A stretch of DNA of 45,764 nucleotides. Origin: a virus. The translations under genes and the position numbers were made by a program. The stretch lies in the IMG/VR virus record IMGVR_UViG_3300006052_000013; one strand, written 5' to 3'. How positions within the stretch are numbered: position 1 is the stretch's first letter; every line of letters begins with the position of its first letter. Of this stretch, positions 44,031-45,405 are shown in pieces. The notes under the pieces were generated by a model. It worked only from the letters and a program-made list of their open reading frames with translations, did not search any database and was not told where the DNA came from.

Positions 44031-44087
44031 TTGGTATGGCAATCTGAGAGGTTTTATTCTCAGATTGGATTTTCCGCCCCACGGCGC
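44031..44087 (-). repeat. partial or divergent long-leader-like element at the head of the array
   Basis: ttggtatggcaa-TCTGAGAggttttattCTCAGAttggattttccgccccacggcgc. Confidence 0.4.
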
Positions 44088-45289
44088 ATTAACGACTGTA
44101 TTCAGGAGGAGAGTCCCTACTAACAGTCGCCCCTCTGCATGACCTTACGGTCATACACAGCGATTACCATCGGGAGGAGAGTCCCTTGGTAATCTATGGA
44201 CTATACAATTGTCTCAGTAATCTTGGAAACCATCCCAACTCCGATATAAATTGTGCACCGGAGTTATTTAGGCATTCTGTTCCAAAAGGTTTCATCTTTC
44301 TAGTTGATCCGGGGCGCATAACGCCGCTCAACTGTTTGGGAATGTACCGTCCGCGATGGGCACTCTGACATTCTTACTTGGGTCGTAGATCGTTGACAAC
44401 CGTCCGTCTTTCGGTTCGCTTTTCGTGGGGTTTAGCAACCAGTCTAACTGGGATCACCACTTTAAGAACCAGGTTTATCGAAACACCTGATTCTCGCGAC
44501 TCCTACTCGCAAGGCCCTCTGTGTCAATAGATTCTCCCGATTGCCGGGAGTTTGAACCTAGATTTTGCCACTACTCTTTATAACCTACATGCTCAGGACT
44601 TGGGACCTGATTCGGTCGTAGTGGACTTCACGCCTGGCTTTATCGCATTTCGCTTATTCCGGCGTGACCAGATAAAATCGGTACGTCCTATCCGGCGGTC
44701 AGAATACTAATCGCGCCATCCGGGACTTCCCGAAGACCGTGAGGTACGACCTGTGAACTCCACTGTGGGGTTTGGCCCACGCCTTAAATCTTCTAAAGCC
44801 AACTGGGATGTCAACATATTCTTACCTCCCGCCCGCCGTTGGAACCGTTCCAAACTCTTACGAGTTTTCAATGGACTCTCCGTCCCCGGTAGGGTCTGAG
44901 GTTGGCCCGAGTGTCTCTAATCTCGGATTTTTCTGAAGATTGGCAGATATTACAGTAATCGCCCTTCGTGCTTCTGGATTTCTCTTACGATCTCTGATGA
45001 CGGGAGTTTCCTCGGTCCCAGGGTTTAGATTCTCTCGAATCTCACGGGTGTCCGTCAAGTAGAGGTTTAATCGGCCGTTCATTCTGAGAAGGTACTCAGT
45101 TTTTCCCTATTCCCTTTTCCCAGACCGTCCCGTGACAGGCGCTTTGCTGGGTACTCGGACTCAGTTCCGAACTACCGAATCTAGATTTCAATGATCCACA
45201 AGGTCACCAGGTAGGGCTCCTATTGGTCTTCCCTGGTGCCTTAACCATAATCCGTTAGATTGGACATATCCATTATAACCTAGTTATGC

Positions 45290-45345
45290 CTTGATGAAAA
45301 AAAATATTTTTTCACTCATTTTTCAACTGTCTAAATTTAGACACA
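45290..45345. promoter_or_regulatory. AT-rich region with a perfect 14-bp palindrome gtctaaatttagac; candidate operator/promoter at the head of the array
   Basis: ttgatgaaaaaaaatattttttcactcatttttcaactgtctaaatttagac. Confidence 0.3.
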
Positions 45346-45405
45346 CTGAGATACTAAAAATGGGAAGACAGTCTACGGATTTCGGTAGGATCGGATCGGG
45401 CGGTT

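Follow-up and report, generated by a model that had tools for sequence, protein, structure and literature searches.

A probable twister ribozyme in a long non-coding region at the head of a predicted phage early operon

The early operon of phage T7 starts with a non-coding leader, and its polycistronic RNA is punctuated before each gene by RNase III sites that leave hairpins at the 3' ends. In the haloviruses HF1 and HF2, a hammerhead ribozyme is located at the 5' end of an early polycistronic transcript, and tandem hammerheads are found in prophage operons (PMC3088659). For twister, a phage context is typical of the bacterial representatives (PMC10085705), and processing of polycistronic RNAs has been suggested, if not established (PMC6765202). 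Here we analyze a non-coding gap (positions 43977-45405) in the genome of an uncultured tailed phage (IMG/VR virus record IMGVR_UViG_3300006052_000013; the entire stretch of 45,764 nt is hereinafter the window), which ends in a twister-like motif and precedes an operon of ~35 small genes, including one for a sigma factor. With moderate confidence, we interpret this region as the untranslated leader of an ~18-kb minus-strand early operon that would be cut off by the terminal twister.

Comparison with these systems shows both common and distinct features. The phage element shares with twister (Rfam clan CL00120, RF02684) the type-P5 order, the conserved nucleotides, the helices P1, P2 and P4 along with the optional P3, both pseudoknot complements and the U-A cleavage dinucleotide, but differs in having a 23-nt P1 loop and a 59-nt P3, in its place at the end of a 1.2-kb leader, and in belonging to a family whose ~35 other members lack the P4/L4 half. 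Like the HF1/HF2 hammerhead, it is a putative small self-cleaving ribozyme located before the first open reading frame (ORF) of a viral early operon, where it would define the 5' end of the mRNA; the halovirus ribozyme, however, is of another class and is accompanied neither by a long leader nor by a genome-wide family of partial ribozymes. The T7 early operon is similar in that it combines a leader with a structured element before each gene, but in that case a host protein enzyme cuts long double-stranded stems, whereas the phage element described here has a ribozyme-type internal loop.

The gap spans 1429 nt between two minus-strand genes of 67 codons (45609-45406) and 90 codons (43976-43704), in a window where nearly all genes are encoded on the minus strand. 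An earlier note on this DNA, prepared from the letters alone, reported no convincing ORF at 44.04-45.40 kb, and this assessment holds: the largest ORFs of the gap encode 74, 60 and 54 aa. By the ORF, periodicity and codon-usage tests, the gap is truly non-coding. The period-3 signal is at the level of shuffled sequences (median 5.2 vs 5.7 for the null, compared to 9.7 for the coding neighbours), and the codon-usage log-likelihood of the leader ORFs is between -0.11 and +0.12 per codon, vs 0.33-0.40 for the small genes of the array and 0.30 +/- 0.16 for in-frame windows of long genes. The frame at 44871/44817-44707 (54/36 codons) has Shine-Dalgarno (SD)-like sequences ahead of two in-frame starts and a codon score of 0.00, that is, it is non-coding. 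The same tests bear on the possibility, also raised in the earlier note, that the region harbors a protein gene that uses an alternative genetic code. The flanking genes use the standard code, all three stop codons are present in 4-12 copies each in all six frames of the gap, and the retranslation that the note had proposed as a check yields, upon reassignment of any one stop codon, no long ORF (the longest frame is 145 codons); with the lack of periodicity and codon scores close to zero, we consider a recoded gene to be extremely improbable. Neither tRNA nor tmRNA genes were detected. The upstream 67-codon 'gene' (45406-45609, minus strand) itself scores 0.01 per codon, similarly to non-coding sequence, and shows only a weak PHROG match (E-value 7e-4); non-coding sequence may extend beyond the annotated gap.

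A permissive Rfam scan of positions 43900-45500 (E-value <=10) detected a single family, twister, with two matches, both on the minus strand; at the gathering thresholds, the Rfam scan of the window gave no match in the region. The first match, at 44139-44009, is to RF02684 (type-P5; 30.0 bits, E-value 6.6e-4 for the region). All strongly conserved letters of the RF02684 consensus are present (GCAGAGGG, UAAUGC, GC and GUCCCAAGCC / CCAGUCCCAAGCCUGG), helices P1 (8-9 bp), P2 (GCA/UGC) and P4 (CCAG/CUGG) follow one another in the permitted type-P5 order, and the loop nucleotides occupy the aligned consensus positions, namely GAGGG and U-A-A in L1, GC in L2 and UCCCAAGC in L4. The complete motif (44009-44139, minus strand; RF02684 match and minimum free energy fold) comprises P2 (44138-44136 paired with 44088-44086), GAGGG (44135-44131), the P1 hairpin (44130-44092) with a 23-nt loop that bears AGGGACUCUCCUCC, the predicted cleavage site at the U-A dinucleotide between U44091 and A44090, the GC after P2 (44085-44084), the 59-nt P3 insert (44083-44025) and the P4/L4 hairpin CCAG-UCCCAAGC-CUGG (44024-44009). 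The predicted scissile bond is located 114 nt ahead of the first AUG. Both pseudoknots are complementary by sequence: GGG at 44133-44131 with the CCC of L4, and GC at 44085-44084 with the GC of L4. The minimum free energy fold reproduces P1, P3 and P4, and the 59-nt 'insertion' relative to the model forms a clean CGUGG...CCACG stem that encloses a 10-bp hairpin, exactly where the optional P3 would be, a helix found in 78% of twisters (PMC6154101). By our estimate, the chance of encountering the exact UCCCAAGC loop, closed by 4 bp, at most 150 nt from UAA-P2-GC is ~1e-5. P1 and P2 are strongly supported by covariation across 35 paralogous elements (see below); for P4, covariation involves two copies only, with two compensatory pairs, and P3 is represented by a single sequence. 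Judging from these features, the twister motif itself is very probably genuine, and it is probably active.

The 196-nt segment 44200-44005 has a folding z-score of -5.55 on the minus strand, markedly stronger than that of the plus strand, and the z-score of the 3' 224 nt of the leader is -5.2. The three hairpins that the earlier note placed at 44100-44200 are real, at 44.09-44.19 kb, and correspond to P1 of the twister and two hairpins upstream of it; however, the note read them on the plus strand, whereas the ribozyme and every other informative feature of the gap are on the minus (coding) strand. The two upstream hairpins are hairpin A (44162-44194, minus strand), with an 8-bp stem and the anti-SD-like loop AGGGACUCUCCUCCCG, and hairpin B (AUGACC-GUAA-GGUCAU; 44139-44154, minus strand), located directly 5' of the ribozyme.

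The twister motif is not isolated in this genome. A permissive Rfam scan of the whole window revealed six further sub-threshold twister matches, all on the coding strand; a pattern search found 35 element copies, every one of them on the minus strand, and a covariance model built from 12 copies identified 35 elements at 27093-43708, again on the minus strand. The element consensus consists of a stop codon, (A)AC, GAGGG, a hairpin of 6-8 bp, UAA, GUAC, usually AAAGGAGA, and AUG. The hairpin, which is P1, is paired in 100% of the copies, with compensatory changes in 7/7 pairs; in P2, the two flanking pairs switch jointly between AC/GU and CA/UG; and neither GAGGG nor UAA varies among the copies from the pattern scan or within the seed alignment of the model. 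In other words, the element is the P2/L1/P1 half of a twister, and the other copies are devoid of the P4 hairpin with the UCCCAAGC loop; some carry other hairpins or a three-way junction ahead of the ribosome-binding site (RBS). These modules stand before nearly every gene of the array, and the twister at 44139-44009 is the sole complete member among ~36. The 'array' recognized in the earlier note consists of twister-derived modules, which the note had missed along with the ribozyme on the opposite strand and a second twister-type loop hairpin in mid-region (see below). On a longer contig that extends beyond the window, a pattern scan detected no element in the 8.2 kb that lie upstream from the leader. 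Mutations in the pseudoknots inactivate twister (PMC6154101), and self-cleavage by a short element on its own, such as those at 41283-41246 and 36936-36899, is therefore not expected. This raises the sharp question of why 35 copies retain the active-site nucleotides without the partner loop.

In a naturally split twister arrangement, the leader, as the enzyme half, would supply L4 to the ~35 half-twister modules, in trans or by long-range contact in cis, so that leader build-up would switch on the cleavage of the operon RNA into monocistronic mRNAs. The last two bases of the L4 loops (GC and GU) are complementary to the two commonest dinucleotides following P2 in the modules, namely GC (UAAUGGC class) and AC (UAAGUAC class). 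Weighing against such an arrangement, many elements have other dinucleotides in this position, and a probe for a trans-acting twister found no complementarity of at least 6 nt between the leader and the conserved element flanks except for the anti-RBS loops discussed below; we regard the split twister as improbable.

Several features of the modules deserve separate mention. Five minus-strand elements (28721-28772, 30598-30698, 32054-32158, 34794-34899 and 39498-39597) form a long class in which UAAUGGCAAU is followed by a three-way junction consisting of the stem AUGGCAA/UUGCCAU, the hairpin GAGGGGAAACCUC and a variable, covarying hairpin, and then by GCCAUACCAGGAGAGGAACAUG; two more long-class copies (43039-42940 and 32519-32417) contain GUACAGC/GCUGUAC and a GGGA..AAAUCCCAA hairpin. 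P3 of the twister contains the long-class string UUGCCAUACCA. In the 5' untranslated region (UTR) that follows the element at 42034, GGUUCGAUUCC (~42010-41977, minus strand) is reminiscent of the T-arm of a tRNA; ARAGORN predicts no tRNA there. A match to the glmS ribozyme within an ORF (14546-14724, minus strand; 24.6 bits, with the gathering threshold at 37, E-value 0.11) is probably spurious.

At the opposite end of the gap, the best sigma-70-like promoter, TTTTCA-17-TATAAT (45272-45300, minus strand), matches 10 of the 12 consensus positions and is preceded by an A/T-rich, UP-like tract. It is the best such site on the coding strand of a 20-kb stretch, its hexamer spacing of 17 bp falls within the 16-18 bp range, and transcription is predicted to start near 45265. 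A second, overlapping promoter-like site is present at 45333-45306, and in total, 43600-45764 contains 7 promoter-like sites, 6 of them on the minus strand, vs 2.0 +/- 1.3 in shuffled sequences. The perfect 14-bp palindrome GTCTAAATTTAGAC (45329-45342) that the earlier note described in an AT-rich block at 45.33 kb is confirmed, with one exact copy in the window; it resembles an operator and lies over, or immediately next to, the -35 region of the promoter cluster. The AT-rich block of 50 bp and the palindrome (45.29-45.34 kb) could also be taken to indicate a replication origin or a packaging site, as the note had considered. However, this sole AT-rich block coincides with the best promoter, the cumulative GC skew, which the note had suggested as a check, runs monotonically through the region without an inflection, there are neither iterons nor direct repeats of three or more copies, and the window is internal to contigs of at least 72 kb and so is not a genome end; this explanation therefore appears very improbable. 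At the 3' end of the operon, the strongest hairpin resembling an intrinsic terminator (27009-26986) comes directly after the last element (27124-27099); within the 3' UTR (27075-26986, minus strand), the terminator-like hairpin is CCCGGCCCAGGAAACUGGGCCGGG followed by a U-run. The simplest reading of this layout would be a single early transcription unit extending from ~45.27 to 26.98 kb and including the leader, the twister and ~35 small genes preceded by elements. A leader for the array transcript was one of the four options listed in the earlier note, and it is the only one that fits the evidence.

The leader body (44195-45265, minus strand) is non-coding, shows no detectable excess of structure and belongs to no recognizable family. 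Three 355-nt segments of the body (45265-44200) have folding z-scores of -1.15, -1.38 and -0.43, no better than those of coding controls (-0.5 to -4.2). A moderate second domain is apparent at 44.6-44.8 kb, with a z-score of -4.65 in one 200-nt window and -2.46 over 316 nt. The region can accordingly be called hairpin-rich in its 3' 220 nt and, to a modest degree, at 44.6-44.8 kb, but not in the body (z-scores of -0.4 to -1.4). The duplicated segments reported previously, GTGGGGTTTrGC...AACTGGGAT and GGGTCGTAG, exist but are at the chance level: the internal local alignment score of the leader is 20, compared to a mean of 18.6 in shuffled sequences, and 159 of the 500 shuffles reach that score. 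A large RNA of the GOLLD, ROOL, HEARO, OLE or raiA kind, the first three of which the earlier note had proposed as models, finds no support in the Rfam comparison recommended there, with no covariance match at the gathering thresholds in the window or at E-value <=10 in 43900-45500. Like GOLLD, ROOL, HEARO and OLE, the leader is large, resides in a phage and lacks ORFs, but it differs from them in that it matches no model, shows no excess structure in the body and has no homologues on which a structure could be based.

An RNA with a function of its own could nevertheless be released by the twister, acting either as an anti-SD regulator via its CUCUCCUCC loops or as a scaffold in which the 44.88-kb site contacts the 3' domain. 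Several observations point in this direction. The same loop segment, of 17 nt (14 nt for the motif itself), is displayed on two different stems, hairpin A and the P1 loop of the twister, a coincidence already spotted in the earlier note, for which we estimate ~0.003 pairs expected by chance. Over 7 nt, the loop motif AGGGACUCUCCUCC is complementary to AGGAGAG, the core of the phage RBS, of which the coding strand contains 25 instances; in particular, the RBS AGGAGAGG of the first operon gene (43983-43990, minus strand; AUG at 43976) is complementary over 7 nt to CUCUCCU of the two loops. The best predicted partner of the two CUCUCCUCC loops in the entire minus-strand transcript (rank 1 of ~9150 windows) falls within the leader itself: this is the purine-rich site GGGGACGGAGAGUCC (44873-44887, minus strand; an inverted repeat with 12/13 matches), with predicted duplex energies of -24.0 and -26.4 kcal/mol, which also covers the SD-like GGAGAG and the UUG of the 54-codon frame. 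A third anti-RBS loop, GUUCCUCUCC, is located in the 3' UTR of the operon, at ~27055. C/U-rich loops of small RNAs are known to pair with SD sequences in Gram-positive bacteria, for example in the staphylococcal Rsa family; the phage hairpin loops that display CUCUCCUCC, complementary to the RBS core, are similar to those of Rsa-type RNAs, but belong to a ribozyme stem and a long leader, with a putative role in regulation. Thus, the loops hint at RNA-RNA regulation. Nonetheless, the duplexes between the loops and RBS, at -17 to -19 kcal/mol, are only at about the 1st percentile of all windows, the chance that the top partner lands in the leader by luck is ~3%, which makes that result modest, and the body lacks both excess folding stability and an Rfam family. 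A functional non-coding RNA hence seems unlikely to us. A hairpin in the 3' UTR (27075-26986, minus strand), ahead of the terminator-like hairpin, has a loop, GUUCCUCUCCG, that matches the complement of the consensus RBS GGAGAGGAAC perfectly over 10 nt.

The body also contains remnants, real or apparent, of a second twister. The second match of the Rfam scan is a P4/L4 hairpin of the twister type, CAGG-UCCCAAGU-CCUG (44594-44609, minus strand; Twister-P5, 22.9 bits), in which two stem pairs are compensatorily changed relative to the first L4 hairpin (C-G to A-U and A-U to G-C); these are the only two twister-type L4 hairpins in the window, and both are in the leader. On our reading of the sequence, ACAGAGGG followed by the 7-bp hairpin CUUGCGA/UCGCGAG and by AAUCAG in place of UAA (44493-44522, minus strand) is located 70 nt downstream of this hairpin, so that the two parts together are in the type-P3 twister order, which possible P2 (ACAC/GUGU) and P3 (CGAA/UUCG) pairings would complete. 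The segment 44522-44493, however, has no L2 dinucleotide, its cleavage loop is AAUCAG rather than UAA, and it was missed by both Rfam and the element model; this mid-leader part is probably degenerate or at least non-canonical, and no extended similarity between the two twister-like parts was detected.

Such a broken twister would fit a body made up of decayed DNA, composed of former gene cassettes and a dead twister, and now carried merely as a spacer that separates the promoter from the first intact element. The SD-like sequence and starts before the 54/36-codon frame with its non-coding codon usage, the purine-rich strand bias that the leader shares with the neighbouring genes, and the lack of excess structure fit this scenario as well. 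Conversely, the region retains no residual period-3 signal, the leader shows no similarity to the rest of the phage at the DNA level or in translation, the element model (E-value <=10) found no copies, even decayed ones, in the leader body, and 1 kb of junk is rarely kept in phage genomes; we consider decay of the entire body doubtful. The 1.1-kb body may thus be a spacer with auxiliary promoters, a set of decayed cassettes including a dead twister, or a functional RNA that acts via the anti-SD loops. In a reading related to the split twister, and similarly improbable, the degenerate and intact twisters could together excise an RNA of ~400 nt (~44490-44091) with 5'-OH and 2',3'-cyclic phosphate ends that would be circularisable, similarly to engineered circular RNAs flanked by twisters.

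Searches for relatives show that the region is represented on more than 10 contigs from several samples in ENA, JGI and Logan assemblies, among them JGI 3300006162, 3300027911 and 3300006086, ENA ERZ28007521 and SRR5581441. These contigs show 100% identity across it, although the strains that carry it differ in the neighbouring gene cassettes. No diverged relatives were identified by DNA, motif or protein searches of phage GenBank, IMG/VR, a metagenome collection and GTDB genomes. Specifically, a blastn search of 50,697 phage records with the region as the query gave empty or chance results; the search of IMG/VR with the two flanking proteins revealed no relative; the loop motif produced 72 single matches, attributable to chance; the search with the twister-architecture pattern yielded nothing beyond chance, and that with the array-element pattern 5 matches, none with the hairpin. 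In the metagenome collection, the twister pattern gave one chance match, without the P4 stem, and in the GTDB genomes, the element pattern likewise gave one chance match. The 90-aa neighbour protein has no homologues, and the 135-aa neighbour has domain-level relatives only, in unrelated phages that lack the region. The closest cultured phages are ~30% identical in the primase.

Under the interpretation that we favour, a leader cut off by its terminal twister, host RNA polymerase would start at the sigma-70-type promoter 45300-45272, with the adjacent palindrome as a possible operator, and would transcribe ~1.17 kb of non-coding RNA followed by the complete twister 44139-44009. The ribozyme would then fold (P1, P2, P3 and P4, together with both loop-loop pseudoknots, GGG:CCC and GC:GC) and cut between U44091 and A44090, detaching a leader with the P1 hairpin and a 2',3'-cyclic phosphate at its 3' end and leaving the operon mRNA with a 5'-OH and a 114-nt 5' UTR. 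The transcription start and the catalytic activity in this scheme we infer from the sequence. Several points weigh against this interpretation. The promoter 45300-45272 is predicted from a consensus match; transcription from a weaker promoter-like site, at 44229-44200, could produce a leader that is far shorter; there is no terminator between the upstream gene and the leader, so that read-through from upstream is possible. The RF02684 score falls short of the Rfam gathering threshold of 37.6 bits, because of the two long insertions, the 23-nt P1 loop and the 59-nt P3. The searches for relatives recovered no diverged homologues from which covariation in P3, P4 or the leader could be derived. 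Finally, nothing explains the retention of 1.1 kb of apparently unstructured RNA.

Some other features of the genome are of interest in their own right. The early array encodes a 530-aa FAD/NAD(P)-binding monooxygenase-like protein (37429-39021, minus strand), the best homologues of which (~43% identity) come from Patescibacteria (candidate phyla radiation, CPR) genomes, a possible hint at the host; an apparent '95%' relative of this protein was discarded as the same phage on a chimeric contig. A T4 Rnl1-like RNA ligase and a calcineurin-like metallophosphoesterase (22670-23818 and 20914-21519, minus strand) look like an RNA end-healing and sealing pair, and the genome may generate many 2',3'-cyclic phosphate and 5'-OH ends. 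An 851-aa protein (18149-20704, minus strand) contains the Major Vault Protein shoulder domain (PF11978, E-value 1.5e-26) and a weak vault repeat match, which is unusual in a phage. In an unrelated 92-kb phage-like contig (L010), a Ro60/TROVE-domain protein (189-1589) is encoded beside a helix-turn-helix gene, the link to the present phage being a shared small domain. At the edge of the window (45716-45764), a 14-nt tandem repeat, GTTGCCCCGGCGCG, is present in ~3.4 copies and runs past the end, which is probably an assembly break, since longer contigs (72 kb, up to ~100 kb) extend further.

For the region itself, the outcome is rather sober, in that the leader body shows no sign of a large structured RNA. 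The broader implication concerns twister, whose biological role in bacteria and phages is still open (PMC6765202, PMC10085705). The operon analyzed here offers a concrete, testable case of ribozyme-based or ribozyme-derived processing or insulation of mRNA in a viral operon and, if this is indeed its function, would be a natural counterpart of synthetic ribozyme insulators.

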